The notes beneath the pieces were generated by a model. The model made no database searches. It was not told the DNA's origin and worked only from the letters and a program-made list of their open reading frames with translations. Shown here piece after piece: positions 1 through 47,955 of a stretch of DNA of 64,000 nucleotides. The translations under genes were made by a program, and so were the position numbers. Origin of the DNA: Macrostomum lignano (lineage: Eukaryota); the NCBI GenBank assembly GCA_002269645.1, contig NIVC01001470.1, positions 1-64,000 on the forward strand. The letters run 5' to 3'. Numbering within the stretch: position 1 is the first letter of the stretch; each line of letters begins with the position of its first letter.

Positions 1-719
1 TATTTGCCTTATTTAGAGTACTTTTTCTATCTATTTTCTACTTCTATTGTTCGTATCAGTAGTAGTACTCGTAATAATACATACACGTGAAGGAAAATAA
101 ATATACCTTACTATTATGAACAGCCAATTCATGGCTCTGATTCACTGTTGCCAGGAGCAGTAATCCAGCTAATATTTGTAAAAATATTTTCCTTTTGTGC
201 GTTTTCAGTTTGTTTCGCAGGTCTGAAACTAAATAAATACACATAAAGTTTTATTATAATAATACAAGTTGTTCTTTCATTGTTATTTTTCTGAAGTCAA
301 CGAGTTACTTAACTGATTTTTGCATTCCTTTTGCCTGCATGATTTGACAAGCAACCCCGACTAGAATTTTAATACACTCAATGCAAGAAGTTTTTAAAAT
401 TTGTATCACTGATTAGCTCGTGTGTTGCTTAAATGATCACTGATCAATATCAATTTCGACCATAATACGTGTGCGTGTATTGATTTTGCATGTATACCAT
501 CTATATGTGGTTGACTCAGAGTGGATTATAGTTTCAGGACAACAACGTGAGAAAAAAACAGCATGGGATAGCTGATGCTGCACTATATTATGCATGTACA
601 TGTAGATATTTAGCAGACCATTTAAGACCTATAACTCAAGGGTGTCGCCACGTGGGGGGGATGGGGATCATGTCCCCCCCCCCCGTGAAAGTCAATATTT
701 GCTTCAGGGCGACAAATAT

Positions 720-1581
720 TGATGTGTTCCTTATTACCCGACTTTCGATAATCAAGGAACAATCACTTCTAGCTCAACAGCTAGGCAACCCAGTAAGTCA
801 AACGAAGGTATTCAATTACCTTTAATCCGGATTTGAATTTCTTGAGTAGTTCTCGCTAGAACTTGTCAGTAGATCTCGTAGATCAGGCGCCTTGATTCTT
901 CAGTTGCTCTGGTCCTGGTTCCTCTTGTACTTCCGATAAGTTCTTCCGGCCGGTATCTTCCGTCAGGACCAATCAGAGGCCTCGTAGCAACAATGGGTAC
1001 CCTGCGCCAAACTGCGGTCTAAATTAAGCCTCCTTCTTCTAGCAGTGCCTCTATGCACTCTAGGTATAGCTCCGGAAACCACTGATAGTCCTCTAAGATC
1101 TATCAGGGGCAGTCCTTCTGGAGACTGCAACCAATGGAGTCTAAACAGACTCAAGAGTCTCAACAGACTCAATTAGACTCAAGTCTCAATAGACTTGAGC
1201 GAGACGTCTCTAACACAACGGCGCAAATAAGGAAGGCTTACCGCAACAACTCGACCGAGTCTCGATTGACTTGGTAGATCAGGAAGTCCTCCTAAGGCTT
1301 CCTCTTCGGAGCGCTCCTCTTCCGTGGGGAGAATGGCTCCGGTACCGCTTCAGATCGCTTGTATTTATAGACAAGTTTTTGATCCAAAATAGTATCATGA
1401 CAATTCACGTGTTGCGCTAAAAGGGGAAAATGGCTCATGGCGTATTATTCTGGTAACATCTTTTTCTGGTAGCGTGATTCATTCAAAGCTTAGGCGCACA
1501 TGCGTGTACTTACTTACTTATAGTAGTATTATACGATTATCTTCTTTTTTCCTTTTTTAACGGGAGGTAGAACACTCTACA
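720..1581 (-). repeat. 3' LTR (862 bp)
   Basis: Matches 11529-12392 except for two single-G indels seen by eye. Minus strand starts TGTAGAGTG and ends GAACACATCA. Confidence 0.96.
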
Positions 1582-1584
1582 AAA

Positions 1585-1596
1585 TCTCCCTTTTTT
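1585..1596 (-). other. Polypurine tract (AAAAAAGGGAGA)
   Basis: Purine run 3 nt upstream of the 3' LTR on the element's sense strand. Confidence 0.8.
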
Positions 1597-1823: not shown

Positions 1824-2456
1824 TCAGCCGAAGCTTGTCCTGAGCAGGCTGCTCACCTGATGCGTGGTTCGCGCCACCAGGGATGCCACTGCCCAGTACA
1901 GCGACTGAAACTTAGTGAATCGCGGATCCTCGGTCCGCTCCAGCAAAAGCAGATAGGCCTCTATGGTCGTAAGCGGTTCTGCTGTACGCACCATAGTCCT
2001 GGCGATGTCTAGTAACCACCGCCAGTCGGCCTGATGCTGAAGCGGCCATGGCCACGTTCGTACGGCGACGGCCAGCTGTTCCAGGGTTAGCTCATCCGGC
2101 TCCGCCAGCGTTAGCTCCGGTACGGCGAGCATCGGTGCCAGTAGTACGGATGCTGTGTTGGACAGCGGAGCCAGGCACACGGTGCACGTCATGATGTCTC
2201 GTGCACCGTACCGCTGAAGACAGCTGAAACACACCCAATGCCGATTTGAACAGAGTCGTACATTGGGCTGGTCGCCGCAAAGGGCACATTGGACCCGCGG
2301 TCTGCGACAGACGGGGCAGGCGGTAAGGATCGTCACGTCGCCAATTTCTCGCGCCCGCTCGTCGCAGGGGAAGCACACCTGGTGCCCCCATTCACAAGTC
2401 GGGAGCATCGGCTCCCGTGCCTCGAGGCAGCAGGGGCAGGTATCCATCTCGGTCAT
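1824..2456 (-). CDS. Accessory ORF B: tandem double RING finger (C3HC4, C-x3-H spacing) protein, 210 aa
   Basis: CPCC-x10-CEWGH-x2-CFPC-x15-CPVC and CALC-x8-CSNRH-x2-CFSC-x11-CTVC. ATG at 2456 is immediately preceded by a branch point and CAG acceptor. Lies inside the LTR element. Confidence 0.85.
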   Translation of the reverse strand: MTEMDTCPCCLEAREPMLPTCEWGHQVCFPCDERAREIGDVTILTACPVCRRPRVQCALCGDQPNVRLCSNRHWVCFSCLQRYGARDIMTCTVCLAPLSNTASVLLAPMLAVPELTLAEPDELTLEQLAVAVRTWPWPLQHQADWRWLLDIARTMVRTAEPLTTIEAYLLLLERTEDPRFTKFQSLYWAVASLVARTTHQVSSLLRTSFG

Positions 2457-2526
2457 CTGTGGGCGATAGGTATAGGTATAGTTAGAACGATTGAGGATTA
2501 TTCAAGATACGTAACAAGCATATGTT

Positions 2527-3195
2527 CTATCGGTGAGACCTAAAAAGCCAAATAAAATAGCTACGTGAGAGCACTAATCGTTTAAGCGCGTGGCAGTATA
2601 CGTGTAGCGTCCAGTGAAATGATTCGTGGTCATGCAAAAACTGCCGCAACCGTCGCTCAATCTCCAAGGGTGACATATGACGCAAAAATCCTTGATTTCT
2701 ATGAGCATATAATAGTAGCTGTCGTCGCGACCGCTGAACGAAGCGAGGTACAGGCCAAAACTCCAGCCGCCGTTCGATACTCATAGCGGTTAAGGTGTGC
2801 ATAGTGTAAACGGATAAACAACGCGCTGGGTCAGGTATAATCCGACACCATTTCTTAAAAGTGTTTTCGCGGGGCATACTGTTACATAAGGGGCATCCTA
2901 TAATGCCCCTACTAGCGGTTTGCTTCAAACAGTGCATGCAAATAAAATGTTGGTGGTTACAATATTGAAACGTGCGCCAAGAATAACAATAGGCACATTG
3001 TCGCAAACTATCTCTACAGAGGGGACAACTCTGCCAGGGCTGAATATAGTGTGAATCACTTAAACATTGTCCGCAAACTTTATGTCCATTGATGCAAATA
3101 GTCGGTGGCTTGACAGCCAAGTCATCAGTTAAACATATCGGGCAGTCATATAGCTGCTGAGGCTGGGGCGCCTGTTTTGACAGTGCGTTGCCCAT
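2527..3195 (-). CDS. Accessory ORF A: N-myristoylation-signal, tandem double RING finger protein, 222 aa from ATG 3195
   Basis: The track start at 3207 is TTG; the first ATG gives MGNALSK. Fingers are CPIC-x12-CINGH-x2-CGQC-x12-CPLC and CAYC-x8-CNHQH-x2-CMHC-x11-CPLC. Confidence 0.85.
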   Translation of the reverse strand: MGNALSKQAPQPQQLYDCPICLTDDLAVKPPTICINGHKVCGQCLSDSHYIQPWQSCPLCRDSLRQCAYCYSWRTFQYCNHQHFICMHCLKQTASRGIIGCPLCNSMPRENTFKKWCRIIPDPARCLSVYTMHTLTAMSIERRLEFWPVPRFVQRSRRQLLLYAHRNQGFLRHMSPLEIERRLRQFLHDHESFHWTLHVYCHALKRLVLSRSYFIWLFRSHR

Positions 3196-3315
3196 AATTG
3201 TCGTCAATTTGTCGCTGTCTTTGTGTCGCTCGGATTAGTCGCCTTTTACGACAAGCTTGCGAAGCTGTAGTGCTATTCTTTATCCCGGTCACTACACGGG
3301 GTTGTTCTCTAAACT

Positions 3316-6300
3316 CTAGCGTGGTCGTAGGTTGTAGCCATGTGGCTGGCTCACATCTGTCGTTTGAGTCTCCTCGTGCTTCGTCGCGATGTGGCGGTTC
3401 GTTGAACGCGTGCGATCAGCGTTGTCTAATGTCGGTAGAAACGTCGCTGTGTCAGTGTTGATCTTCTTTAGTCGATGAATGTGTACGTAGAACTGGTGCT
3501 GATGTGGATCTTGTACATTAGCCAGGCGTGCCGTTGTTGGTGACGTTAGTTGGACCACTCGATAGGGTCCTTTGTACTTCTGTGCATGTTTATGCGTCTG
3601 CTGTGGCGGGTAGTGTAGGTAGACGATGTCGCCGGCCGTCAGGGTTGTCGATCTCGCGTCGTTGCCGGTGGTCAGAGCCACCTGGTTGTCAATGTTGTGC
3701 TTGGCGATCTTCCATGCGAGGTGTAGTTGCGTGACGAATTTCTGAATGGAAGTCGGTACTTCCACGTACTGCGATGGTAGCAATTGCTGTGCGAGCAGAT
3801 TCGGCGGTTGGAAGTCTCGTCCAAACATTAGGAAGAATGGCGTATTGTCCGTTGATCGATGAATAGCGCTGTTGTAGGCCATTGTTACAGATTGCAGGTA
3901 GATGATCCAGTCTTCCGGCTGTTGGTGCGCGAAATGTGTAATCATCTCGTGCAGGTTGCGGTGAAACCGTTCAACCATGTTTGCCTTCGGATTGTAGGTC
4001 GATGTGTAGATCTGCGTAATGTTGAGAATCCTTACGACTTGCTGAAACAGTTGCGATGTAAACTGCGATCCGTTGTCCGATGTGAGGTTCTTCGGCGTGC
4101 CGTACTTGCAAATGATTTCGTTGAAGAAACTCATTGCCACTGTCTGAGCTGTGATGTCCGGTATCGGTATGGCGATAGCAAACTTCGAGAAGATATCCAA
4201 GGCGGTTAGAATGTAGGTGTAGGCGATGCCCTGGAGACAGCTCGGTGGTAGCGGTCCGGTGATGTCGATGCTTAGACAGTCCATTGTAGTCGACTTCGGA
4301 ATGGACTGTAGCTGCGGTTTCTGTCGTCGTCCTGTCTTTGATGCAGCACATGAATGGCAGTTGTTGCAATACTGCTTGATGTCGCCGTACATAGTTGGCC
4401 AAAAGTAGTATTGTTCCACTCTCGCGATGGTCTTTGCTGCCGACAGGTGTCCAGCGAGTGGGTTGTCGTGTAGCTCGTTGAGAATTGCTTGCCGAAACGA
4501 ATATGGTATGTAGATCTTGGGTTTATTGTCGCTCATCCAGTAGAGCCGTGACTTATTGATTGTTAGGTGTTGTCGTTGCTTGCGTAGGAATTTTCGTTCC
4601 ATGGGACTGAGTTTGATGTTCTTGTCGTCGTCTTTAACCGCTTGGTAGAAGTTGTCGCGCTCGGTTTCATCCACCAACTCCTTGATGTTAGGGATTGGAT
4701 GAATGGCGTTGACTTCATAGGCTCTTGACAGGGCGTCCGCGGCTTTGTTGGTAATTCCTGGTTTGTAGACGAGTTTGTAGTTGTAATCCTGGATCTTGAG
4801 TGTCATTCTGATGAGTCGGTTGTTGGTCTGTCCTTTTGTAGTTACGACGTAGGTCAATGGTGCATGATCCGTGCGTACTATCGTCTGTATTGGAGAACCA
4901 TAGATGTAGTAATGAAACTGTCGCAGGGCGAACAAGACTCCTAGTAGCTCTCGTTCCGTAGCTGACCACTTTGTTTCATTTGGTTTGAGTGCTCGACTGA
5001 CGTAGGCAATAGGTCGTTCCTTCTTGTCCTCGGTTTCCTGTAGTAGGACTGCTCCGAGTCCCGTTCCTGAGGCGTCTGTCTCGATGATGAAGGGCTTGTC
5101 GAAGTCCGGATGCTGTAGCAGTGCGTCTGATGTCAGCTGTCGTTTGATTTCGTCGAAACTTTCCTGTTGTCTCTGTGTCCAGTTGTCTTGCTTCCATTTG
5201 TCGAACTTGAGCAGGTCGTACAGTGGCTTTGCTGTCTTTGCGAAGTTAGGTAAGAACTTCCTGAAGTATTGCGCAAGTCCAAGGAATGATTGGACCTTCG
5301 TTATACTGGTTGGCGTAGGAAACTTCTTCACCTTTTCCACGTTGTCTGGGTCCGGTGAGATTCCTTTGGCTGTCACCTGATGTCCCAGGTAACGCACGTT
5401 GTCTCGGAAGAATTTGCATTTAGTTGGTTGTAGCTTCAGACCTTGGCGTTGAATGAGCGCTAGGGCCTTCTCCGTAGCTTCGTAGAGTCGCTCGAAATCC
5501 TCTCCGTAGGCTAAAATGTCGTCGACATAGTGCAGCAGGTTCGTGCATCCTGCTAGCATGTATGCTGTTAGTCGACTCATCGTTGCTGGGCTGTTGCTAA
5601 GTCCCATCGGCGATCGATTGTACTCGTATACTTGTCCATTGTAGGTTTTGAAAGCCGTGTACTGTCGTGACTCTTTCTCGATTTCAATTTGCCAAAATCC
5701 ATGACGTAGGTCGAACACCGTGAACAATTTTGCCGTGTTGAGCTTTGCTAGTAGTTCGGAGATCTTCGGTAGGCTTTGCTGATCCGTCGGTATGTACTTG
5801 TTCAACAGTCTGAAGTCGCATACGAGTCGTCTTTCGTTTGTCTCCTTCTTCTGTACCAGTAGGCACGGTGAGGAGTAAGCCGAAATAGCTTTGCTGATGA
5901 TGCCGTGCTTTAGCATTTTATCGATGATTTCGTCAAAGTGTTGTTGCAGATGCTTGGCGATCGGGTACGGCTTGCACTGAATTGGTTCCGTGTGCGGCAG
6001 AAGTTTGATTTCCTGTTTGATGTCCTTGGCTCGTCCGATGTCGTAATCATGATGGCAGAAGGCTTCGTTGTACTTCCACAACAGCTGTCGAACTTTCCTC
6101 TTTTGCTGTTCCGTAATCGGGCTGTCATCCAAATTGATCTTCTTTTGAAATTCTTCCTCTGTTAGTCGTGGAGTCGCTTGTTCAATCAGCATAACCGATG
6201 CTTGGGTGTTGAGATGACCGATGCACATTCCTTGTCGTAGATGAACCGTTTCTGTGTTCGGGTTGAAGATTTGTACTGGCAGTTGCTTATCCTTTGCAAC

Positions 6301-9300
6301 CAGCACTAGTGCCGTAGGCATCATGATTTGATGTTTTGCCGTGACTCTCCTGTGTGGATCAAATATCATTGCTTCATCTGCCGCGCTGGTCGTTTTCGCT
6401 CTGACCCAGCATGCGCTTTCAGGCTGGATAATGACATCTTGCTGCAGAGTTACTTTCGGTAGTACTCGAATCTGGTTGATCAGCGGTTGCTCCACCGTGT
6501 CGATCCTAAACGTTTGCTTGTTGAAGTCGAAGGTCAATGGTAGTTGAAGCTGCTTGAACGTGTCGATTCCAACGATGACGTCTTGGTTTGGTAGTCTGTC
6601 GATGATGTACGTCGGGACCGTCAGCTGTTTATTAGCAATTTTCAAGTCGATATCTGCTTTTCCTAGGATGTTGAGTGAATGTCCTCCTGCTCCTGCAACT
6701 GCGATTGCTGCTGGTCGTACCGCGAGTCGTAGCTTGTTGCATAATTGTTGCGAGATGACTGTGATCGAGCTGCCTGAATCCAGTAGTGCTCGACATGGCA
6801 AGTTGTTGACAATGACCTGAGCCATTGCTTTGCCAATCTCGGCGTGTAGCGTACAGACGTAGTTTTCCGGCCATTTTGGCTCGTGCTGTTCTGCTTGATA
6901 GTTGGGTGGTTGTATCCTTGGTGCCGTTGGTGTTGTCGGAATCGATGGATATAGCCGCGTTGCTAGTGTCGGTTGCCCTTGAACCTCACAATGTGCAGTT
7001 TCTGTTAGTTCTAAACTGTTGTCGCTTTCCGTTGTCGTTCTTTGCATTATGGCATTCACTGTCTTCTTAGCTCTTGGACAAGTTTGACTGAAGCACCGTA
7101 CGATCGATGAAATGATGAAGATTGCCGTGACAATCCACACAATGCAAGCACCGTAGAAGATGAATCCTTGATAGAGACTGCCTCTTCCATTGAGCAGCTC
7201 CCAGAAGCTATTTGTCCAAAATGATTTGATGGCGCTGTCCATTGAAACAAGGACGGGAAATCTTCCTGTCCCGGTTCCTTTGTCCTTTCTTGTGAACAGC
7301 TGGTGAATCATCTTGCGTTGGGTGATGAACGCTTGCAAGAAGTCGTTGATCGTCCATCCTGGTGTTATCTCGTCAAGTTGGATATCGGCGAATGGCGTAT
7401 ACTTCGTTCTGTTGAATCGGATTTTCAAATCCTCCATGTCGTAGTTTTCGTCGACGATTACTTCCGGTTCTGTGACGTTTGCTGTCGTTCCAGTTGTTTT
7501 GATGACGTGTAGTGCATTGTCCAGTTGATAGTAGTTTACTGCCGTGGTGCAAGGTCTCGGTATTGCGGTGCCAACGATGATGTTGTGTACCGTGTCCAAG
7601 AATCCCTGAATTCGTTTTCCTTCGTAGAACGCTTCAATCCTTGGCTTATCGTAGCAGGTTGTTGACGTGTTTGACGGCAAGATGTTAAAGTGCTGTATCG
7701 GCGTGCACTTGTATATCAACAGATGCTCGTATATTGGAACTGCCAAAACGTTCGTCATTCCGGTGATTTTACGAAAAGTCATCGTAGGGTTGACATAGTA
7801 GTTTTGTCTGGCATAATTTAAGTTGATTGCGTGCATTTTGCAAGTTAGCTGGACCAGTGTTCGATGCAAGTGGTTTAACTGGTTGTGTAGATTGTGATCC
7901 AAAGCCGTTATCTTTGCTGACAACAGCCGGTTTGACACCAGTTTGGGACGTTCGATGTCACGTCGTCTTCTATTCTGTTTTTCTTGTTGCTGATACGTTC
8001 CATTGATGATTGCCAAGAAGGTTTGTTTGTCTTCATCCTTTACGTAGACTGGTATCTCTTGTTCCGAGATGAATAGTGTCTTGTCTGTATCCTTGCATTT
8101 CAGTTTTTGCTCGACTGGTTTCTTTTGAAACGTCAGTGCCAAGTCTCCTGACTTTGCCAAAAACGTATTTGACAGTAGTCCTCCTTCAACTGTGTGATAC
8201 TTTTGAAGCTTGCAGTCAATTTCCGGCTCAACTTCCCACGCGAAGAAGTATTGTCGTGATTTGTACGGTTCCTCATAGTGTGATTGTGCTCTGTGCTCAA
8301 TCTGCCATCGATAGTCTTGATGATATGTTGGACTCAGTGGTAGACTGTGTAGTTCTTCCTTCCGTAGAATCGGCGTTGGACACCATCCTTCACTGTATCG
8401 ACATTCGCTTAGTTGCAGCTGTAACGATTCCATTTTCTCGTACGGATTGTAGTAGAATGGAATATTTCTGATCAAGTAGCTGTTGCGTGCCATATATTCT
8501 TTCCATTTTCCGAAGAAGTGAATATATCGACCGTTGGCTGAATTCTTTGTTCTGAACAGCTGTGCGTTGCCGACCTTCTCATCTGGTTCCAGTTCACCAT
8601 CCTTTGAAAATAGTGTTTGATTCCATTGTAGGCATTCCGCGTGCGACACATGTAGCTCATGTTGTTTAAATCGGATCCGGTTCCATTGTCCGCGCCAAAC
8701 TTTTTCCACCAGGTGCTTGTCTCTGAAGCATACTATCCCGTGTTGTCGATGCTTCTTGATGTTAGCCTTGTAGAGATCGAGTGTAATCTTCTTTGGTTTT
8801 GTCTGGTTTGTCTTGAAGTAACTGCATTTGATGTCGGTTGGTATCTTGTAGATCATCGGTTGGATATGCGCATCCGTTGGACAAATCATTGGCTTTTCCG
8901 TTGCCGTTGCTTTGGCGACTACTGCTATCAGTAGTATCACGATGATCCAGAATAGCCAGTTTTTCCACTTCTTGGATTTTGCCGTTGTCCTTGCTGGCAT
9001 TGGCTGCGATCGCCATTCGTTATCTTCCATGTCCGCATCATATTCTTTCGGTTGTTCCATTGGCTGATCCAGGCGGAAGGCTTCTGATTCGCTTTGCTTT
9101 TTGGTTATTTCATTATCTTCGTCTGCGGCTTCTTCCGATGTTTCCGTTGTTTCACTCCATTGCGTTTGGTATCTTTTCTCTGTCTTGTAGTCGACCGTTT
9201 GAATATAGGCTTCACCATTTCGTTTGTATCGGATCTCGTAGCATTCGTCGCTGTCGGAACTCGGCTTTTCTTTCACCTGTTCTTTTTCCATTTCTTCATC

Positions 9301-10812
9301 TTTCCATTGTATTTCGTAGCCTTGATCGCTGTCGGAACTTAGATTCTCCGCTCTCGGTTCTTCCTGCATTCCTCTTTCGGCTTGGTAGTCGTTCGTGTCA
9401 TCACGCACCTCGCAGTCGTGGTCGTTGCCGTAACTTCTACATTCTTCTTCTTCTTTCATTTCTTTGTCTTTCATGCTCGTTTTGTCGTCATCCACTGTTG
9501 TCGATTCATAGTTGTTTTCTTCGCCGGTTTTCATCTTTTCTTCGTTGCCGATGTCGCTCTCCGCCTCCTCCCTTGTCTTGTGATTTACTTTCTTCCTGTT
9601 TTCTCTGCTGTCTCCGGTGGTCTCTTTTAATTTGATCATTTCGGTTTCATTCGTCTCTTTCGTGTTGTCAGTGTTGTCCTCGTGCGTCGTCTTCTTTTCG
9701 ATCAAGCTGATGTCAAGTTCCGGGACTGTGAAGTCCATTTCCAAGTCGTCAATTGTGAACACTTGCTGTTCTTGCTGTTCATTTTCCGGTGTGTACGTGA
9801 TGGCATTCGCGTATCGTGGCATTGCTTGCGTCGGCTGTCTTTGTGTGTATCTGACGTTGCGTGGCCTGTAGCCATTACTTCTGAAGCGGCCTTCGTTTCC
9901 GAAGCGGCCATCATTTCCGGAGCGGTCATTATTTCCGAAGCGTCTATCATTTCCGAAGCGTCTCATTCCTTGTTGTTGGCGATTTTGATAGTGCTGCCAT
10001 GGTTTCTGCGGCTTCTGATTGTTGAATATCTGTCGCGGCTTGTCGTATCTTGTTGACCAATGAGGACAATTAATCTGATAATGTCCTTCTTGTCCGCAGT
10101 AGTAACATCTGGCTGAGGCTTGTTCATTTCGTCTTTTTTGTTCGGCGATAGCAGCTGTCTGGTGCTGCATTAACTTGTTTAGTTGCTGCGTCAGTTTCTG
10201 CACTTCATTGTTGCCTGTCGTCATTAATGGGGCACTGGCTTCCCATTGCATTCCGCAACGCAAAAGGTCTTCTTCGGTTTCGATATTTTCACGCAAAAGT
10301 CTATCCCGAAGTGACGGCTGTGCGTTGTTTATTACGTGCAGGATGAGGTTTTGTTCACGATCCATCAATCGTTGTCTTTCTCTGGCGGCCAATTCTGCCG
10401 CTCCCAGTGGTGGTTGGTCCGCAGCTTGCAGCGGTGGCTGATGCAGTGCCTTAATTATCTGGCGGATATCGTCCACAAAGGCGAGGAAGGATTCTGTTGC
10501 TTGCATCCTTCTGTTATGCAACTTGTGCAGCAGCACTGATCTGTTTGTGCCGCAACGGTTGAAATGCGCGCGCAGTTGAATGATTAGTGCTGGATAATTT
10601 TGCTGTGTTGCCGCATCCAGCTTGCCGTAAATTTCTCGCGCAGTACCTTGGAGAAGAGGTGGCAGCAGCTGTGCCTTCTCTGGATTTTGTAGGTTGTATT
10701 CCCTACATACCAGGTCAAAATGGTCGACAAATGTGTTAAAATCTTTCTCCATCGAGAAAGTACCGACCGTTTCTTTGATGTCTCTGTGTACCGTTGGATT
10801 GCGCCGCGCCAT
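3316..10812 (-). CDS. gag-env-pol: Gag-Env(gB-like)-Pol polyprotein, 2498 aa, single frame
   Basis: Gag capsid-like N-terminus and zinc knuckle CYYCGQEGHYQINC (10066-10107); signal/TM WLFWIIVILLIAVVAKA (8908-8958); furin site RRRR (7960-7971); TM (7099-7167); protease LLDSGS (6772-6780); RT YVDD (5518-5529); RNase H TDASG (~5070); integrase H-H-C-C, D,D(35)E core and KGPY. Confidence 0.97.
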   Translation of the reverse strand: MARRNPTVHRDIKETVGTFSMEKDFNTFVDHFDLVCREYNLQNPEKAQLLPPLLQGTAREIYGKLDAATQQNYPALIIQLRAHFNRCGTNRSVLLHKLHNRRMQATESFLAFVDDIRQIIKALHQPPLQAADQPPLGAAELAARERQRLMDREQNLILHVINNAQPSLRDRLLRENIETEEDLLRCGMQWEASAPLMTTGNNEVQKLTQQLNKLMQHQTAAIAEQKRRNEQASARCYYCGQEGHYQINCPHWSTRYDKPRQIFNNQKPQKPWQHYQNRQQQGMRRFGNDRRFGNNDRSGNDGRFGNEGRFRSNGYRPRNVRYTQRQPTQAMPRYANAITYTPENEQQEQQVFTIDDLEMDFTVPELDISLIEKKTTHEDNTDNTKETNETEMIKLKETTGDSRENRKKVNHKTREEAESDIGNEEKMKTGEENNYESTTVDDDKTSMKDKEMKEEEECRSYGNDHDCEVRDDTNDYQAERGMQEEPRAENLSSDSDQGYEIQWKDEEMEKEQVKEKPSSDSDECYEIRYKRNGEAYIQTVDYKTEKRYQTQWSETTETSEEAADEDNEITKKQSESEAFRLDQPMEQPKEYDADMEDNEWRSQPMPARTTAKSKKWKNWLFWIIVILLIAVVAKATATEKPMICPTDAHIQPMIYKIPTDIKCSYFKTNQTKPKKITLDLYKANIKKHRQHGIVCFRDKHLVEKVWRGQWNRIRFKQHELHVSHAECLQWNQTLFSKDGELEPDEKVGNAQLFRTKNSANGRYIHFFGKWKEYMARNSYLIRNIPFYYNPYEKMESLQLQLSECRYSEGWCPTPILRKEELHSLPLSPTYHQDYRWQIEHRAQSHYEEPYKSRQYFFAWEVEPEIDCKLQKYHTVEGGLLSNTFLAKSGDLALTFQKKPVEQKLKCKDTDKTLFISEQEIPVYVKDEDKQTFLAIINGTYQQQEKQNRRRRDIERPKLVSNRLLSAKITALDHNLHNQLNHLHRTLVQLTCKMHAINLNYARQNYYVNPTMTFRKITGMTNVLAVPIYEHLLIYKCTPIQHFNILPSNTSTTCYDKPRIEAFYEGKRIQGFLDTVHNIIVGTAIPRPCTTAVNYYQLDNALHVIKTTGTTANVTEPEVIVDENYDMEDLKIRFNRTKYTPFADIQLDEITPGWTINDFLQAFITQRKMIHQLFTRKDKGTGTGRFPVLVSMDSAIKSFWTNSFWELLNGRGSLYQGFIFYGACIVWIVTAIFIISSIVRCFSQTCPRAKKTVNAIMQRTTTESDNSLELTETAHCEVQGQPTLATRLYPSIPTTPTAPRIQPPNYQAEQHEPKWPENYVCTLHAEIGKAMAQVIVNNLPCRALLDSGSSITVISQQLCNKLRLAVRPAAIAVAGAGGHSLNILGKADIDLKIANKQLTVPTYIIDRLPNQDVIVGIDTFKQLQLPLTFDFNKQTFRIDTVEQPLINQIRVLPKVTLQQDVIIQPESACWVRAKTTSAADEAMIFDPHRRVTAKHQIMMPTALVLVAKDKQLPVQIFNPNTETVHLRQGMCIGHLNTQASVMLIEQATPRLTEEEFQKKINLDDSPITEQQKRKVRQLLWKYNEAFCHHDYDIGRAKDIKQEIKLLPHTEPIQCKPYPIAKHLQQHFDEIIDKMLKHGIISKAISAYSSPCLLVQKKETNERRLVCDFRLLNKYIPTDQQSLPKISELLAKLNTAKLFTVFDLRHGFWQIEIEKESRQYTAFKTYNGQVYEYNRSPMGLSNSPATMSRLTAYMLAGCTNLLHYVDDILAYGEDFERLYEATEKALALIQRQGLKLQPTKCKFFRDNVRYLGHQVTAKGISPDPDNVEKVKKFPTPTSITKVQSFLGLAQYFRKFLPNFAKTAKPLYDLLKFDKWKQDNWTQRQQESFDEIKRQLTSDALLQHPDFDKPFIIETDASGTGLGAVLLQETEDKKERPIAYVSRALKPNETKWSATERELLGVLFALRQFHYYIYGSPIQTIVRTDHAPLTYVVTTKGQTNNRLIRMTLKIQDYNYKLVYKPGITNKAADALSRAYEVNAIHPIPNIKELVDETERDNFYQAVKDDDKNIKLSPMERKFLRKQRQHLTINKSRLYWMSDNKPKIYIPYSFRQAILNELHDNPLAGHLSAAKTIARVEQYYFWPTMYGDIKQYCNNCHSCAASKTGRRQKPQLQSIPKSTTMDCLSIDITGPLPPSCLQGIAYTYILTALDIFSKFAIAIPIPDITAQTVAMSFFNEIICKYGTPKNLTSDNGSQFTSQLFQQVVRILNITQIYTSTYNPKANMVERFHRNLHEMITHFAHQQPEDWIIYLQSVTMAYNSAIHRSTDNTPFFLMFGRDFQPPNLLAQQLLPSQYVEVPTSIQKFVTQLHLAWKIAKHNIDNQVALTTGNDARSTTLTAGDIVYLHYPPQQTHKHAQKYKGPYRVVQLTSPTTARLANVQDPHQHQFYVHIHRLKKINTDTATFLPTLDNADRTRSTNRHIATKHEETQTTDVSQPHGYNLRPR
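7099..8958 (-). other. env: Envelope glycoprotein domain, class III fusion (herpesvirus gB/chuvirus G-like), inside the polyprotein
   Basis: Cys-rich ectodomain with N-glycosylation sequons (NQT, NGT, NTS, NVT, NRT) and an RRRR site. VNPTMTFRKITGMTNVLAVPIYEHLLIYKCTPI and CYDKPRIEAFYEGKRIQGFL...PRPC parallel, from memory, the gB NP...C and CYSRP...GQL...EPC blocks. Not confirmed by HMM. Confidence 0.8.
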
Positions 10813-11508: not shown

Positions 11509-11526
11509 GAGAGGGCGAGATCACCA
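11509..11526 (-). other. Primer binding site (TGGTGATCTCGCCCTCTC), primer tRNA not assigned
   Basis: Starts with TGG 2 nt after the 5' LTR end (CA). Confidence 0.7.
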
Positions 11527-11528
11527 AT

Positions 11529-12392
11529 TGATGTGTTCCTTATTACCCGACTTTCGATAATCAAGGAACAATCACTTCTAGCTCAACAGCTAGGCAACCC
11601 AGTAAGTCAAACGAAGGTATTCAATTACCTTTAATCCGGATTTGAATTTCTTGAGTAGTTCTCGCTAGGAACTTGTCAGTAGATCTCGTAGATCAGGCGC
11701 CTTGATTCTTCAGTTGCTCTGGTCCTGGTTCCTCTTGTACTTCCGATAAGTTCTTCCGGCCGGTATCTTCCGTCAGGACCAATCAGAGGCCTCGTAGCAA
11801 CAATGGGTACCCTGCGCCAAACTGCGGTCTAAATTAAGCCTCCTTCTTCTAGCAGTGCCTCTATGCACTCTAGGTATAGCTCCGGAAACCACTGATAGTC
11901 CTCTAAGATCTATCAGGGGCAGTCCTTCTGGAGACTGCAACCAATGGAGTCTAAACAGACTCAAGAGTCTCAACAGACTCAATTAGACTCAAGTCTCAAT
12001 AGACTTGAGCGAGACGTCTCTAACACAACGGGCGCAAATAAGGAAGGCTTACCGCAACAACTCGACCGAGTCTCGATTGACTTGGTAGATCAGGAAGTCC
12101 TCCTAAGGCTTCCTCTTCGGAGCGCTCCTCTTCCGTGGGGAGAATGGCTCCGGTACCGCTTCAGATCGCTTGTATTTATAGACAAGTTTTTGATCCAAAA
12201 TAGTATCATGACAATTCACGTGTTGCGCTAAAAGGGGAAAATGGCTCATGGCGTATTATTCTGGTAACATCTTTTTCTGGTAGCGTGATTCATTCAAAGC
12301 TTAGGCGCACATGCGTGTACTTACTTACTTATAGTAGTATTATACGATTATCTTCTTTTTTCCTTTTTTAACGGGAGGTAGAACACTCTACA
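11529..12392 (-). repeat. 5' LTR (864 bp) with TATA box (TATAAATA at 12180-12173)
   Basis: Direct repeat of 720-1581, followed by the PBS. An ATTAAA poly(A)-like hexamer lies near the LTR 3' end. Confidence 0.96.
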
Positions 12393-12980
12393 ATATATAG
12401 CGCCTGCGGCACCAAACACGAGTTCCTGCAGCGCAAAAAATGCCTGCGACGCCAAATGAGCGCTGACAACACCGATTCTAAAAATAATGTAAAATGTTAA
12501 AATGTATAATTCTTGCGGCTTAATTTGTTCCCCACCATAAAATCAATCTTGTGACGCCCCTGCCACAACAGTACATGTAACTCACAAACCTTCTGTCGTA
12601 AATGCACATGCAAGTCGTATATAGCCAGTAGAAGTGACTAAAAAGAGAATCAAAGTTGTAGATGGGGTTGGTACATGTTTGTTAGCCCGACAAACGACGA
12701 GAGTGTAGGCCTGAAGCCATAACCATGCCTAGACTCATTCGTCTTTTTCTCTTTTGATTTCCATTTACCTTAAGATATTGAGTTTAAATACTTTTAGTAT
12801 TTTTAACATTAATTTACTTGCACTTCTTATTCATACAGCGAAAATATTTTTACTTCCTTTTAAATATTAGTTGACGTATGCTCCGGTATCTGAGGCTTAC
12901 TCTATGTTTCAAGTAAATAATTGTCGTAAAACACGAAAATGTTCATGTATTACTACCACATTAAAGACAGTGTTGCCTAG

Positions 12981-13138: not shown

Positions 13139-14911
13139 ATGTGGCTGTCGAGCTTTTTGGCATTTGCTCTGCTTGCTCTCGCATGCGGTGAAGTTTACTT
13201 CAAGGAGGAGTTTTTAGATGGTAAGTTAGTTCTCGCTCTGACGTTTATTTTGTTTAGATTCTCAAATTCCCTTGTGTTGCTGCAATACTAGAATAGGGCA
13301 TTGTCTTGTTGGTTTTCTTCATTTCAACCATATCAGAATATTAAAGTAACTAAAAATAGTATTGAAATCATTCCATTCTTTTTAACTTTGCACATTCAAG
13401 CAGTTAAAATAACCCCCTTGTGTTAGCTTTGCATTTTGTTCTAAAAGAATAAACTGTGGTTACTGGTTTACTTTTTTATAGTTTTTGAAAGATAATTCAT
13501 TAAAAAGGCTTCTATTATTGAGTATGAGAGAGAAAGGAAGTATAGGTTTCTAGCTAGCTACTTTAATTTAATTGTAACATATTATAAGATTGTTTTATAA
13601 CTTCACAATTTTTTTGTTTCCTTAAAGACTATTTGTATATATATATATTGCCTATCTTTACATTTTTCTATGTTTCTCCTAATGTAAAATCCTTTGATTT
13701 AAATATTTATTTTTTTCTTTTAATTTTAATTATATGCTTTGCTAATTTGTCTTCACAAAATATTTATTTCAGAGTCATGGAAGGATCGGTGGGTAGAGTC
13801 AACCTACAAGGGTAATGACCAAGGCAAATGGGAATGGACTGCTGGCAAGTTCTACAATGATGCTGAAAAGGACAAGGGAATAAAAACCTCCCAGGATGCC
13901 AAATTTTATGGCATCAGTGCCAAGTTCAACTCTCCATTCTCCAATGCTGGCAAGACTCTGGTGATCCAATTCCAGGTCAAGCATGAGCAGAACATTGACT
14001 GCGGTGGTGGCTATGTCAAAGTCCTTGGCAGCGATGTTGACCAGAAGAACTTCCACGGCGACACACCCTACAAGATCATGTTTGGTCCTGATATCTGCGG
14101 CCCTGGCACTAAGAAGGTGCACGTTATCTTCAACTACAAGGGCAAGAATTTGCTCACCAAGAAGGAGATTCGCTGCAAGGATGACGAGCTAAGCCACCTG
14201 TACACCCTGATTGTGAAGCCTGACAACACCTACGAGGTGCTGATTGACAACGAGCGAGCCGAAGGTGGAGAACTCGAGGCCGACTGGGACTTCCTGCCAC
14301 CCAAGAAGATCAAGGATCCGGCCGCCAAGAAGCCAGACGACTGGGACGAGCGCGAGAAAATTGACGACCCGAACGACAAGAAGCCGGAGGACTGGGACAA
14401 GCCCAAGACCATCCCGGATCCCAAGGCCAAGAAGCCGGACGACTGGGACGACGAGATGGACGGCGAATGGGAGCCGCCGATGATTGACAACCCGGACTAC
14501 AAGGGCGACTGGAAGCCCAAGCAGATTGACAACCCGGCCTACAAGGGCAAGTGGATCCACCCGGAGATTGACAACCCGGACTACTCGCCGGACCCCGAGC
14601 TGTACAAGTACACCGACATCGGCGCCATCGGCTTCGACCTGTGGCAGGTGAAATCTGGCTCCATCTTCGACAACGTCTTCGTTGGCGACGACCCGGCCGA
14701 GGCCAAGGCCTTCGCCGACGAGACCTTCAAGAAGACCGTCGAAGGCGAGAAGAAGATGAAGGAGAAGCAGGACGAGGAGGACAAGAAGAAGGCGGAGGAA
14801 GAGGAGAAGAAGCGCAAAGAGGAGGAGGAGAAGAAGAAGGCCGAGGAGGGCGACAAGAAGGAAGCGGACAAGAAGGAGGACGACAAGAAGGACACCAAGG
14901 ACGAGCTGTAG
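13139..14911 (+). CDS. CALR: Calreticulin, two exons (13139-13220, 13773-14911)
   Basis: Exon 1 encodes the signal peptide MWLSSFLAFALLALACG-EVYFKEEFLD, with GTAAGT donor and TTTCAG acceptor in phase 1. Contains KHEQNIDCGGGYVK, IMFGPDICG, P-domain repeats, an acidic tail and C-terminal KDEL. AATAAA at 15029. Confidence 0.98.
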
Positions 14912-16912
14912 AGAGCGGCTTCCGTTGCCTAGGGCCTCTGTATTTGCGGTTGGGCGGCTGGCACTCCAACTAGTTTATAAATAGTTCTTAAATTTCAATT
15001 TCGAGCTCACGCAACAAAATTTTGGCTGAATAAATTGACACGCAAAACGGCATTTCCAGCGGCCCCGTGCAACTGCAACTCCCTCTGTCTGCTTTCCTGT
15101 GTCGAATAGCCATCTCTCTCTCGTACCGCACAATATTTGTCCCTATCCCGGCATAGATGTGGTAGAACTAATTACACCTGGTGGATCAGCTATTATCTAT
15201 CGTTGTTATTAATAATACTCCCAATATAGTAAGTAGCTAGACTTAATTAACGTTGCTTAATGATTTTTTACTCCTTTTCTCTCCATCCAGCGGACATTTT
15301 GTCACTCTGAGCCCCGACTGCTTGTTAGTTAAAAAGGGAAAGTTTTTTATACGTTCATTATTGTTATTTATTTGTTAGAATGATTCTAATTAATACACGC
15401 TTAAGCCTAATTTTTTGCACACATTTTTTGGTTGCAATCGGAGGCACAAGTTTCCATGCTTCACAATATAAAACCATAATTGCCACACTGATCCCAGGCC
15501 CATGCGCAATAATTGTGCCAATGCTAACCAAAATAAATGCCATCCCGTTTAAAACTGGGTCTAGTAATAGCCATATTATTATATAGTAGCGCCCAGTCAA
15601 CCAGGGGCTGCAATAATTACTTTTCTTATTTGTAATATTGAAATCTATCGGAACTCACCCAGTGTCTTTGTTTGGCCACAACAAACCCCGCAATGATTTG
15701 TTTAAAACTTCCCGCTCCTTGCTCTGGTGTCATTTAAATAAACCCAACCTTCTGTCTGTTTCCTTCGATTATATATCGACTATTTATGTTGTCACGTTGA
15801 GTAAATATATAATATCTCTGTTTTTTGGAACTCATTCTGTTATGCGAAACTATGCTAAATAATAAATAAATAAATATGGAATGTTTAGAACAAATTAACT
15901 ATGTTCAAAGATCTTACATACACAATCTCAAAGGTAATATATGATATAATATATGAGTAATTATGTTATAGTCTAATTAGCGCGCAAAACAGCTATAAAG
16001 TGCTTGTAAACTACTGATCTCGAATTTGTCAGTAGTCTTGCCGCAACTTTTATTTCTACCAGATATCATCACTGGTTCTAGCTCGTAATACATGTAGCTT
16101 TACATGAAAAGACGAAGCAGAACTCTGAAAATTAGTGCTATTTTCGTGAAGTCAAAGAAAAAAGACTCGAATGAACTGCAACTATTTATTCTCTACTAAT
16201 AGTAGAGCTTATAGAACCGCGTTTAGCAAACAAAATTGTTGAAACTGTTGGAATGCAGCTCAATCTTAGTGGTCCTACGTGTGCTGTGCATGTACAGTAT
16301 GTGCTGGTCCGATCTATTTATAAAGACCAAGTTTCAAATTTGCATAAGAGAAAAAAGCACAGCAATTCTTCTTTCGGCAAAAAAGACGGCCAAGTCCGCG
16401 AAACTAAACTGTGCCAATTGCAAGTCATTCCAAGGCAAACAACATTTTATTGGCACACTTTACAGCCTAAATTTATCCATTCTGATTCTCTCGCCGTCTG
16501 TCTCCTGTCAGCTCTAATTCACAGAAGTGTAGTGTGCAGGTGCAGGTGCGTTCATAAACTCAACTCTTGACACGCCTAAAAGGGGGCGGTTGTGCGCGAG
16601 TACGTGCGTCTACGAATACGTTACAGATTCATTATATGCAGAGAAATGCTAAAAAAGCGAAACAGAAAAACACCCGAACACCGAGACAGCTATAAGCTCT
16701 ATTTGCGCTTATAAACAGCTCGTCCTGTCTGCACACCAACTATTAGCTAAAGTGTCAACTTTACTCTCCGTGGGTCTCTCAGTTAAACTGCAGAACTTTG
16801 ATATACACCTATAACAGCACTGCTTAGTTGCTCAGCGACCTCCGAGTGTGACCCGATGCTGACCGACAGATCGATGTGAGTTCGTTTATAATACACAATT
16901 TTTTATTCCCCT

Positions 16913-39617: not shown

Positions 39618-42600
39618 TCAAGCCAGCAGCGTCTGCAGCGAGTCCATGCCGATCAATATGGCCGGATTGCTGCGAAAGTAGGAGCAGAAATCTTCCCAAC
39701 TGATGACGCCGTCCCCGTCGGCGTCCAGCTGGCGGAAAACGGCCTCCGCTCGCTCCTCCACCGTCACCGAAGTCACTGGCGGACGGACTCGATGTCCGAG
39801 AAGGTCGTAAACGGAGCTCACCACTTCGAAGACCTCCCGCCTGTTGATCTCGCCGTCCTTGTTGGTGTCGTACATGTTGAAGATCCACCCGAGGCGTTCT
39901 TCCCGACTGCCTTTCAGCAGGGTGTTGAGGCATAGGGCGAACTGCTCAAAGCTAACGGAGCCCGTGCGGCCCCGATCAAAGCCGCAGAACACGAAATGGG
40001 CGAAAGTGTGCGCATTTCCCAACGGGAAGATCTGCGCCAGGATTTGTTCCAGCACCTCCTCTTGCATCAATCCTAAAGGTGGGAGCATTAGAGTGAGTCG
40101 TAATCGAGTTGAAAAAATCTACACATCTGAATGCTGAACTCAAGCCACAATATTCGTATTTTCTGCCGCAATGTAAATTCCTATCGATCTATCTCTAATT
40201 CGTTCCAGCCAACCCCTAACAACCCCAAGCCCTGTCCCTGCCTGTGCAAACCGGCCAACCTCACTCCACTCCTGCCCCTCCAGCAACCCCAGGCTCTGTC
40301 CCTGCCTGTACAAACTAGCCAACCTCATTCCACTCCTGCCCCTCCAGCAGCCCCAAGCCCTGTCCCTGCCTGTGCAAACCGGCCAACCTCACTCCACTCC
40401 TGCCCCTCCAGCAACCCAGGCTCTGTCCCTGCCTGTACAAACTAGCTAACCTCATTCCACTCCTGCCCCTCCAGCAACCCCAGGCTCTGTCCCTGCCTGT
40501 ACAAACTAGCTAACCTCATTCCACTCCTGCCCCTCCAGCAACCCCAGGCTCTGTCCCTGCCTGTACAAACTAGCTAACCTCATTCCACTCCTGCCCCTCC
40601 AGCAACCCCAAGCCCTGTCCCTGCCTGTACAAACTAGCCAACCTCACTCCACTTCTGCCCCTCCAGCAACCCCAAGCCCTGTCCCTGCCTGTACAAACTA
40701 GCCAAACTCACTCCACTTCTGCCCCTCCAGCAACCCCAAGCCCTGTCCCTGCCTGTACAAACTAGCTAACCTCATTCCACTCCTGCCCCTCCAGCAACCC
40801 CAAGCCCTGTCCCTGCCTGTACAAACTAGCCAACCTCATTCCACTCCTGCCCCTCCAGCAACCCCAGGCTCTTTCTCTGCCTGTACAAACTGGCCAACCT
40901 CACTTCACTTTGGCTAGTAAACATTTTTTTCTTTTATGCCTCATGCTTCACTCATGAGCGTATATGATTGTTTCTCCTATTTGTCTCCCTGCCACAGTAT
41001 CTATGCAGGAAAACTGAACCACTGGTATGAAGAAAAATAAAGAAGTTTCCGTATTTTTTCTTTTGCAATTTGTCTTGAAAGACACTATAGAGATACTGAG
41101 CCGGAGAAGGCAATGCTAGTCAAAGTGGCCAGATTAGAATGCCAATCGTGAGAATAAGAAAATGACTTCAAGGCACTTCAACCAGGGAGCTAAAATAGAA
41201 CCAGGACTGGGAGCTGAAAAAAACACTGGCTGAGCTTTCTCAATGCTGCAGCAGCCACTGAAAAAAAGCAAACTGACAAACTGGCAGTCCCGTCACGAAG
41301 TGCGGAGAGAGATAGGAAATTGGATCCGACACTCTCCCGCTTGGCCTTCTTTGCTACTTCTTAGGCAGCTCCCCTATTCCTTCTTTCTCAGATCCGGTCC
41401 TACCCCCCTCTAAGCTGTCTCTCTCCCAATCCCCCAGCCTATTCCCTGCGCTGCGATCCCAGCAGCACAGTTGCTACGCGACGGCAGATGCGCTCGATCG
41501 AGAAATTTGGAAGGGAATCGAAAGCTTTATAATTTAAGTACCGGATCAAGCAAATGATTTAGCTATAATTACTATTTAGCTATTATTCCCATCATTTTCC
41601 TAAAAGCTTCTATCTGTCATATTTCCAACCAACAATGTCTCTGACTAACGACTAATGATAATTAACTAACCTCATGGCTCCTGACCTCATGGCTCCTGAC
41701 CTCATGGCTCCTGACCTCATGGCTCCTGACCTCATGGCTCCTGACCTCATGGCTCCTGACCTCATGGCTCCTGACCTCATGGCTCCTGACCTCATGGCTC
41801 CTGACCTCATGGCTCCTGACCTCATGGCTCCTGACCTCATGGCTCCTGACCTCATGGCTCCTGACCTCATGGCTCCTGACCTCATGGCTCCTGACCTCAT
41901 GGCTCCTGACCTCATGGCTCCTGACCTCATGGCTCCTGACCTCATGGCTCCTGACCTCATGGCTCCTGACCTCATGGCTCCTGACCTCATGGCTCCTGAC
42001 CTCATGGCTCCTGACCTCATGGCTCCTGACCTCATGGCTCCTGACCTCATGGCTCCTGACCTCATGGCTCCTGACCTCATGGCTCCTGACCTCATGGCTC
42101 CTGACCTCATGGCTCCTGACCTCATGGCTCCTGACCTCATGGCTCCTGACCTCATGGCTCCTGACCTCATGGCTCCTGACCTCATGGCTCCTGACCTCAT
42201 GGCTCCTGACCTCATGGCTCCTGACCTCATGGCTCCTGACCTCATGGCTCCTGACCTCATGGCTCCTGACCTCATGGCTCCTGACCTCATGGCTCCTGAC
42301 CTCATGGCTCCTGACCTCATGGCTCCTGACCTCATGGCTCCTGACCTCATGGCTCCTGACCTCATGGCTCCTGACCTCATGGCTCCTGACCTCATGGCTC
42401 CTGACCTCATGGCTCCTGACCTCATGGCTCCTGACCTCATGGCTCCTGACCTCATGGCTCCTGACCTCATGGCTCCTGACCTCATGGCTCCTGACCTCAT
42501 GGCTCCTGACCTCATGGCTCCTGACCTCATGGCTCCTGACCTCATGGCTCCTGACCTCATGGCTCCTGACCTCATGGCTCCTGACCTCATGGCTCCTGAC

Positions 42601-44461
42601 CTCATGGCTCCTGACCTCATGGCTCCTGACCTCATGGCTCCTGACCTCATGGCTCCTGACCTCATGGCTCCTGACCTCATGGCTCCTGACCTCATGGCTC
42701 CTGACCTCATGGCTCCTGACCTCATGGCTCCTGACCTCATGGCTCCTGACCTCATGGCTCCTGACCTCATGGCTCCTGACCTCATGGCTCCTGACCTCAT
42801 GGCTCCTGACCTCATGGCTCCTGACCTCATGGCTCCTGACCTCATGGCTCCTGACCTCATGGCTCCTGACCTCATGGCTCCTGACCTCATGGCTCCTGAC
42901 CTCATGGCTCCTGACCTCATGGCTCCTGACCTCATGGCTCCTGACCTCATGGCTCCTGGCCTCATGGCTCCTGACCTCATGGCTCCTGACCTCATGGCTC
43001 CTGACCTCATGGCTCCTGACCTCATGGCTCCTGACCTCATGGCTCCTGACCTCATGGCTCCTGACCTCATGGCTCCTGACCTCATGGCTCCTGACCTCAT
43101 GGCTCCTGACCTCATGGCTCCTGACCTCATGGCTCCTGACCTCATGGCTCCTGACCTCATGGCTCCTGACCTCATGGCTCCTGACCTCATGGCTCCTGAC
43201 CTCATGGCTCCTGACCTCATGGCTCCTGACCTCATGGCTCCTGACCTCATGGCTCCTGACCTCATGGCTCCTGACCTCATGGCTCCTGACCTCATGGCTC
43301 CTGACCTCATGGCTCCTGACCTCATGGCTCCTGACCTCATGGCTCCTGACCTCATGGCTCCTGACCTCATGGCTCCTGACCTCATGGCTCCTGACCTCAT
43401 GGCTCCTGACCTCATGGCTCCTGACCTCATGGCTCCTGACCTCATGGCTCCTGACCTCATGGCTCCTGACCTCATGGCTCCTGACCTCATGGCTCCTGAC
43501 CTCATGGCTCCTGACCTCATGGCTCCTGACCTCATGGCTCCTGACCTCATGGCTCCTGACCTCATGGCTCCTGACCTCATGGCTCCTGACCTCATGGCTC
43601 CTGACCTCATGGCTCCTGACCTCATGGCTCCTGACCTCATGGCTCCTGACCTCATCACACAATGACCTCATTACACACTGACCTCATCACACACTGACCT
43701 CATTACACACTGACCTTATCACATAGTGACCTCATCACACAATGACCTCGTCACACAATGACCTCATCACACAATGACCTCATCACACACTGACCTCATT
43801 ACACACTGACCTCATTACACACTGACCTCATTACACACTGACCTCATCACACAGTGACCTCATCACACACTGACCTCATCACACACTGACCTCATCACAC
43901 AGTGACCTCATCACACAGTGACCTTATCACACACTGACCTCATCAAACACTGACCTCATCACACAGTGACCTTATCACACACTGACCTCATCACACAGTG
44001 ACCTCGTCACACAGTAACCTTATAAATCTGATACCTAACTTTGCACTTTTGAAGTCCCAATATCTAACCACATATGATCTAATATATCAACTCCATAATC
44101 CCTGATCATTGACCTTTATCCGATACTGAGACATTCCAACCGTACCGTACGGGCACTCAGACTTGAAGCGCCTGTAGATCGCTTTGAGCTCCTGGCTGGT
44201 GAACCGAGTCCGCTGAACCAGGCTGGCCAGGCTGACCGTCCGCGGCCTCCTGGCGAACAGCGTAAGCTCCAGCTGGCTGGCCTCGTCCGGCAGGTGGCCG
44301 CCAAGCACCGCGGCTGATTTCCGGCGCACCTGGCCGAACAGGCTGGACGGTGCCGATGTGAATCGGCGCAGAAATCGTTGGAGACGGCCGCCGGCGCCCG
44401 CGCTTTCCATTGTTGGCAGCGCGATGGCGCCGGATCGCTGCTGGCGCCGCTGGGCCAACAT
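39618..44461 (-). CDS. KCNIP: KChIP/neuronal calcium sensor family EF-hand protein (exons 44461-44146, 40072-39618)
   Basis: [22 protein letters not shown]|LMQEE...[17 protein letters not shown]-hands [10 protein letters not shown] and [14 protein letters not shown]. Phase-1 GT/AG junction gives 257 codons; the start Met is uncertain. Confidence 0.88.
40206..40905 (+). repeat. ~64-bp minisatellite in the KChIP intron, about 11 copies
   Basis: Period 64 (AGCCCT at 40611 and 40675). Confidence 0.93.
41669..43650 (+). repeat. 15-bp array (CTCATGGCTCCTGAC)n, about 132 near-perfect copies
   Basis: Direct reading; one substitution seen near 42959. Confidence 0.99.
43651..44015 (+). repeat. 16-bp array (TGACCTCATCACACAC)n, degenerate
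   Basis: Period 16; shares TGACCTCAT with the adjoining 15-mer. Confidence 0.93.
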
Positions 44462-44480
44462 GATTGGCTGCCTGCTTTGG

Positions 44481-44776
<296 letters not shown>

Positions 44777-45140
44777 GTAAACACGCGACAGTTATGGGGC
44801 CGCATCAAGTGTTAGAAAACGCACAGCCTTCTCAGCCAATGACGGGTCTCATAGCACATTGGATAAATGCTGCATGCGTGGGCCTCAGTCTTCTCGAACA
44901 TGGAAATAATCTTTTTTCCTGAGCAGCCAATCAAAGCTGTCTTTATGTGTATGTAATCCATTCAAATATTTATTTCTCAGGCCCCCAAATTTCACTGCAT
45001 TCGGAAATTTGATCCCTTTAAAAGGAATTCCAATTCGTCTGACATCCAACTGTCGTCAGATGTCTTCTCTCTGCGTTTTTTCTCCACTATCTTCCCCAGG
45101 GGAATCTCTGCGCTCGGATGTGGATGTGGATCGGCAGTCC

Positions 45141-47270: not shown

Positions 47271-47484
47271 CTGATTACTTGTTCGAGTAGATGGTGAACA
47301 AAGGGCGAGTTGTCACTCAGGAAAGAGGCGAGAGACGAGAATACCTGGTAGTCATTTGTATTTGTAAGTACGAGCTTACTTGCAAACGATTCACCGCTGT
47401 GACAACGCTGTGAAACTAGCGAGAGACAATTAGATAACATTTGATGTGTGTGCGGCATCATGAGTGAAATTTCAAGTTAATGAT

Positions 47485-47955
<471 letters not shown>

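Follow-up and report, generated by a model that had tools for sequence, protein, structure and literature searches.

Two paralogous tandem-RING genes behind pol in a Macrostomum lignano errantivirus-type element are candidate E3 ligases

The window analysed here, a 64,000-nucleotide stretch of Macrostomum lignano DNA, contains an intact 11.67-kb Ty3/gypsy element of the GAG-ENV-POL type, which lies on the minus strand and carries two small genes, ORF A and ORF B (Table 1). Its polyprotein contains a CCHC knuckle, a fusion-glycoprotein-like region, protease, RT, RNase H and integrase, and the order PR-RT-RH-IN is as in Ty3/gypsy. The env region matched PF24664 weakly (E 1.9e-5; 23.3 bits vs. 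a curated cut-off of 27), and a comparison with PDB sequences gave no useful match for this region. Four 18-nt repeats occupy the Gag-Env linker (9871-9960). The two LTRs differ by two 1-bp indels and no substitutions, the empty-site joint (715 -> 12395) is present in sequencing run X17, and near-identical full copies lie at two other sites, each with its own duplication. This insertion is very recent.

Table 1. Coordinates of the element, its genes and its predicted expression signals within the window.
Feature	Position	Strand	Remarks
Target-site duplication ATAT	716..719	.	partner 12393-12396
3' LTR	720..1581	-	862 bp
Polypurine tract	1585..1596	-	
ORF B	1824..2456	-	210 aa; RING1 aa 7-50 (linchpin R51), RING2 aa 57-94, helical WP domain aa 95-210
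Predicted splice acceptor CAG	2457..2459	-	abuts ORF B ATG
ORF A	2527..3195	-	222 aa; RING1 aa 18-60 (linchpin R61), RING2 aa 67-104, helical WP domain aa 105-222
H-type pseudoknot + hairpin	3238..3300	-	between pol stop and ORF A
GAG-ENV-POL single ORF	3316..10812	-	2498 aa; pol stop at 3316
Primer-binding site	11515..11526	-	12-mer identical to Mlig_errantivirus_2 listing
5' LTR	11529..12392	-	864 bp, ends TG...CA
Predicted splice donor G/GTAAG (cut at the slash)	12048..12053	-	128 nt past TATA, no ATG upstream
TATA box in LTR	12175..12180	-	kept in 5/5 families examined

The element very probably belongs to the Mlig_errantivirus_2 family, an assignment made on features (the same species, the GAG-ENV-POL order, the primer-binding 12-mer and an LTR of ~864 bp, as given in excerpts of PMC13524379) rather than on sequence alignment. 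These excerpts describe the ENV of Mlig_errantivirus_2 as HSV/gB-type. Its listed copy measures 10.59 kb, compared with 11.67 kb here, and this length fits a cassette-deleted variant, which would be ~10.6 kb. In the accessible main text of PMC13524379 the terms RING, accessory, zinc, ubiquitin and splic are not mentioned, nor is RING in seven of its supplements. The tRNA type of the primer-binding site is given there as 'others'. The sister family C391 has a different primer-binding site.

As the initial annotation had proposed, pol and the 3' LTR flank the two ORFs, which together encode four RING fingers of the spacing C-x2-C-xn-C-x3-H-x2-C-x2-C-xn-C-x2-C, each with eight ligands (C3-H-C4). 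The variable spacings are x12/x12 and then x8/x11 in ORF A, and x10/x15 and then x8/x11 in ORF B, so the identical spacing noted for the second RINGs also holds. Across the window, translated in all six frames, the RING pattern has no other match. When the residues of each protein were shuffled 20,000 times, a single motif arose in 0 and 1 shuffles for the two proteins, and a pair of motifs in none. The suggested duplication is supported by BLASTP (25% identity over 195 aa, E 1e-13) and by comparison of the A and B family profiles, which align with a profile-profile probability of 99.8% over 186 columns, the C-terminal domain included. A C-terminal motif is indeed shared by both ORFs, with the spacing WP[VW]P-x7-R-x-LL rather than the x6 first given, and the 'PL..IE..L' portion once assigned to it is not conserved; of the residues in this domain, W-P and a single Leu close to the end are the only ones invariant throughout the family. 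ORF B is richer in GC, as had been noted (61.3%, GC3 0.70, vs. 45.9%, GC3 0.455, in ORF A), and the same contrast is seen in diverged orthologues. We therefore rejected recent capture as its cause, since the contrast holds across dS above 1. Finally, four of nine A-type sequences, ORF A of this lineage among them, start with Met-Gly-Asn-x-x-Ser; neither P0004, a relative found on public contigs, nor any B-type sequence does so. This Met-Gly start resembles an N-myristoylation signal, and in this lineage the ORF A protein may be anchored in a membrane.

AlphaFold2 models of the two proteins (pLDDT 90 and 88) each consist of two RINGs and an all-helical C-terminal part. In these models, RING1 overlays solved E3 RINGs, those of RING1B and TRAF6 among them, within ~2-2.6 Å over ~50 residues, and RING overlays of predicted models on solved structures had Z scores of 4.5-5.3. 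The best overlay of RING2 was with Lassa Z (Z 5.2, rmsd 2.0, 47 residues), a score tied with many E3 RINGs. The family profile matches the RINGs of RING1B, SIAH1 and TRIM proteins (E about 1e-5). Pfam RING scores lie under their curated cut-offs in both ORF B (21.6 vs. 29.3 bits) and ORF A (22.2 vs. 27.3 bits); Sina_RING is the top Pfam match for ORF B (E 2.5e-4), and its cut-off is passed by some sister ORFs. Searches with the whole models returned RING matches and weak helical-bundle matches (best Z 5.4 and 4.5), and within them the helical C-terminal domain had no clear structural match. In the ESM Atlas, ORF A led to generic viral RING clusters only (0.91, with recognition below threshold), and the C-terminal domain of ORF B led to nothing.

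Fourteen of the 16 ligands are invariant in 20 sequences, a conservation that is partly by construction because most of these ORFs were picked with a Cys/His-pattern filter. The hydrophobic residues of RING1 loop 1 (C-P-[VIC]-C-[LYF]-type) are present in 24 of 24 sequences. This was also true for the linchpin Arg directly past the last RING1 Cys, a position that was free in the search pattern. In RING2, the linchpin position holds Arg in none of the 24 sequences and Lys in one. The linker between the RINGs is exactly 5 residues long in all 24, and although this length was fixed in the pattern, no sequence failed it. A cationic linchpin primes E2~ubiquitin, according to the accessible part of PMC12326332. 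To judge from these sequence features, ORFs A and B are likely to have E3 activity. The original proposal of element-encoded E3 ligases is thus supported for RING1, which has the expected hallmarks in genes that are element-encoded, duplicated and under selection; it does not extend to RING2, which lacks the linchpin Arg in all 24 sequences, so that the four fingers probably represent two ligases rather than four active RINGs. RING heterodimers pair one active with one partner RING, and by analogy each of these proteins would combine an active RING and a partner RING in a single chain. RING folds also serve non-E3 roles.

Genome searches gave at least 151 matches for ORF A and at least 151 for ORF B, and 150 of 249 and 150 of 214 candidates, respectively, were scored. 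In 20 genomic stretches, sister families with Pol 64-96% identical have retained two or three ORFs of this kind downstream of pol, and all loci compared sit in element-derived DNA. Our alignment holds 20 intact ORFs; broken copies exist in arrays. Nei-Gojobori dN/dS could be estimated for 10 of 13 ORF A pairs, with values of 0.11-0.30, and lay at 0.13-0.37 in 9 of 15 ORF B pairs; the pairs are not independent of one another. Values of 0.47 and 1.28, both with wide intervals, came from two ORF B pairs that are nearly identical, and the remaining pairs were saturated. The RING half and the C-terminal half had similar dN/dS, and values for Pol were 0.01-0.05. The initial annotation had raised the possibility that sister copies are degenerate, with dN/dS near 1, or that the ORFs are recent captures of one host gene. 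We found neither: dN/dS values are well under 1, the match to host SIAH is confined to RING1, and the family reaches beyond this assembly.

A profile search of 1.84 billion representatives returned P0003, the full-length proteins P0004-P0006 (E 1e-33 to 1e-38) and the partial P0007 and P0019. All but P0003, a 660-aa UniRef gene model stitched from ORF B copies, come from short public contigs only. P0004 and P0005 are absent from the M. lignano assembly, in which their best-scoring matches are 39-42% and about 30% identical. P0004 groups with the A type, which argues that the A/B duplication is old. Word-indexed protein searches returned nothing for ORF A or for the alignment, and for ORF B they returned only P0003 among longer proteins; exact look-ups in the sequence collection had no hits. 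Five giant-virus loci in IMG/VR match RING1 only, matches in BFVD and IMG/VR are of RING length only, and none of 53 candidates among metagenome contigs matched. Thus, these collections yielded no viral donor.

The cassette of RING ORFs appears to have a history of its own. Between the element in the window and L061, dS was 0.05 in env, 0.34-0.51 from RT to integrase and 1.4-1.5 in the RING ORFs. In addition, the Pol proteins of L067 and L068 are 97-99% identical, yet their second ORFs come from different clades of the tree. We infer from the excess of cassette dS over that of Pol and env, and from this conflict, that cassettes are exchanged between families. Six contigs (G000 C2121, C1130, C87, C272, C4009 and C1405) carry packed, mostly same-strand and partly broken element 3' ends with RING ORFs; these are possibly piRNA-cluster-like arrays.

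ORF A is cut near codon 162 in at least 24 matches and near codon 90 in at least 20. ORF B was deleted in all three of the cut-A matches that were checked, and in some cut-A matches the polyprotein is open (2480-2538 aa), so the cassette is dispensable in cis. A non-autonomous 6.9-kb derivative (L066 and L100, on G000 C301 and C1192) has identical LTRs and both RING ORFs intact, while an in-frame deletion of ~4.4 kb takes the protease, RT and most of the integrase; several similar copies exist. More distant families (integrase 35-41% identical) have 3' ORFs of 260, 253 and 362 aa (L115:5299-6078 (-), L117:1769-2527 (+) and L120:1889-2974 (+)), which are without a confident Pfam match and do not resemble the RING ORFs. 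These unrelated ORFs indicate that the post-pol slot holds variable cargo. The cassette-less copies, the 6.9-kb derivative and the unrelated 3' ORFs all point to genes that are accessory and probably trans-acting; if ORFs A and B act in trans, cassette-less copies can free-ride on them.

How the two ORFs would be expressed is suggested by signals in the LTR and upstream of each gene. We consider it likely, going by predicted sites, that ORF B is translated from a subgenomic mRNA spliced from the donor in the LTR to the CAG next to the ORF B ATG. A donor lies 110-128 nt past the TATA box in the LTRs of 4 of 5 families. Of 11 B-type lineages, 8 have a YAG placed 0-2 nt upstream of the ATG, compared with a mean of 0.77 and a maximum of 5 over 20,000 shuffles; among A-types the count is 0 of 8. 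In the predicted gene model P0003, exactly this LTR exon is joined to a B start. No splice-type joints are listed in four sequencing runs, of which three are guessed to be RNA and none is on record as RNA, and whose contigs drop rare forms; in X2 and X7, contigs run through position 2457 without a break. In the three presumed RNA runs both ORFs are covered, which is no proof of transcription. Among the loci compared there was no spliced retrocopy, and the combined branch-point score for the acceptors was not significant. A joint from 1631 to 2873 was rejected as splicing, since it is without GT-AG ends and exists as genomic copies.

For ORF A, readthrough from pol was rejected, given an in-frame stop at 3235-3237 and a spacing that varies across families. 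The pseudoknot and hairpin upstream of ORF A lie 10-17 nt past the pol stop in 6 of 6 families aligned, with 98% of cells paired and compensatory changes in two pairs across the six sequences; this covariation was reached by 2 of 500 shuffles, and relatedness can inflate the signal. At gathering level the region matched nothing in Rfam, and by minimum free energy the intergenic region folds no better than its shuffles (z -0.47). The pseudoknot may take part in ORF A expression. It is retained in L103, a copy that lost the RING ORFs.

On balance, we lean towards reading ORFs A and B as paralogous accessory genes of an errantivirus-type Ty3/gypsy element that encode self-contained RING E3s aimed at host proteins. 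RING1 would bind and prime E2~ubiquitin, RING2, 5 residues away, would serve as a structural or interaction partner, and the helical WP domain would most likely select the substrate, with the paralogues probably differing in target or location. That the target is a host protein and not the element itself is, overall, slightly more likely than not; that it is a silencing or restriction factor, as first supposed, is less likely than not. A broader picture, which we hold loosely, is an independently evolved complex-retrovirus layout, in which spliced double-RING E3s with a new substrate-binding domain destroy silencing or restriction factors, are exchanged as cassettes, and act in trans as a public good supplied by few copies, non-autonomous ones included. 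The selected accessory gene family itself is real and apparently undescribed, in an element of a known kind.

Rather unlikely, in our view, is that these are true E3s working on the element's own cycle, with Gag or the polyprotein as the ubiquitination substrate in budding, sorting or turnover. The hallmarks of RING1 would fit that role just as well, and both the in-frame envelope-like region and the Met-Gly-Asn-x-x-Ser start of four of nine A-types speak for it. However, cassette-less copies are common, distant GAG-ENV-POL-type families hold unrelated 3' ORFs, and the RING ORFs evolve much faster than Pol (dN/dS 0.1-0.3 vs. 0.01-0.05) and are swapped between families. Such fast change and swapping fit variable outside targets better.

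The overlay of RING2, with no linchpin, on Lassa Z and the myristoylation-like start of ORF A recall arenavirus Z, and the proteins could be non-enzymatic RING scaffolds, either membrane-bound or regulatory, that bind polymerase, translation or innate-immunity factors. We regard this as unlikely, given that RING1 has its linchpin Arg in 24 of 24 sequences, that a Met-Gly start is missing from five of nine A-types, all B-types and P0004, and that the Lassa Z score is tied with those of E3 RINGs. More improbable is a nucleic-acid or chromatin binder, a Rev- or Tat-like regulator of the element RNA that perhaps acts via the pseudoknot. The conserved RNA structure does adjoin the genes, and an element that seems to splice would need to export unspliced RNA; but the pseudoknot stays in ORF-less copies, deleted copies still multiply, the proteins have no obvious basic RNA-binding stretch, and their E3-type residues would be left without explanation. 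Passenger fragments of host genes, or a host-domesticated family lying in elements by chance, are very improbable and largely refuted by purifying selection up to dS above 1, by the location of every locus compared in element-derived DNA and by a resemblance to the host SIAH RING (38% over 45 columns) that ends at RING1, even though this resemblance and the many broken array copies would suit such an origin.

ORFs A and B differ in several respects from known systems. Retroviral accessory proteins usually borrow host ligases. Baculovirus IE2 and PE38 are virus-encoded RING E3s. SINA/SIAH proteins share the C-x3-H RING ending in C-P-x-C-R, but SIAH combines a single RING with zinc fingers and a substrate-binding domain, whereas ORFs A and B have two RINGs and a helical domain. 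HSV-1 ICP0 is a virus-carried RING E3 reported to act against host defence (PMC7303953), and RAG1 and RAG1-like RINGs are carried by mobile elements (PMC1131882). The RINGs of ICP0, IE2/PE38 and RAG1-type proteins are single ones, set in different architectures, and their carriers are DNA viruses or DNA transposases.

The nearest precedents are these RAG1-type RINGs and two kinds of retroelement, each of the latter described here from excerpts. The giant Burro/GYPSM1 gypsy elements of planarians are flatworm Ty3/gypsy elements in which env lies between gag and pol in the same reading frame (PMC6431247). Their cargo is ubiquitin- or apoptosis-related (BIR, MATH, SUMO-like and a RING-containing 'AIR1' motif), but it sits inside a ~4,900-aa polyprotein or upstream, and these excerpts report no post-pol tandem-RING genes (PMC6431247). 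LTR retrotransposons of bdelloid rotifers have a variable slot between pol and the 3' LTR, ORF3, that is typically expressed from spliced messages (PMC5408684). Its cargo is a GDSL esterase, a DEDDy nuclease, an env or a TM/coiled-coil protein, and RING is not mentioned in the accessible text (PMC5408684). In the literature searched, to which subscription journals, repeat databases and bioRxiv supplements did not belong, tandem-RING accessory genes in an LTR element are undescribed. The accessible text of a study of M. lignano LTR elements (PMC12801592) is without the words 'RING', 'ORF' and 'envelope', and 150 matches to 'RING' in its supplement are in an expression table.

If the host-directed reading is true, an LTR element that encodes its own ligases would represent a new form of counter-defence. 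M. lignano is a stem-cell model tractable by transgenesis and RNAi, in which natural copies that carry the cassette occur alongside others that lack it, and the substrates would identify the host factors that hold retroelements in check in flatworm stem cells or in the germline. Of structural interest are the invariable tandem of a putatively active and a putatively inactive RING, and the unmatched helical domain.

The surroundings of the element and the host genome gave some further observations. A long uninterrupted exon at 13775-14914 (+), which ends in KDEL and lies 1.4 kb from the 5' LTR, reads, by eye, like host calreticulin. Farther along the window, a long 15-nt tandem array spans about 41530-43800, and short-period arrays in inverted orientation occupy 44458-47950. 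Elsewhere, L114 (G000 C210, with similar matches on C1491 and C2920) contains clustered host RING genes of TRIM-like appearance, with a RING, a B-box-like stretch and a coiled coil, that are unrelated to the element ORFs.
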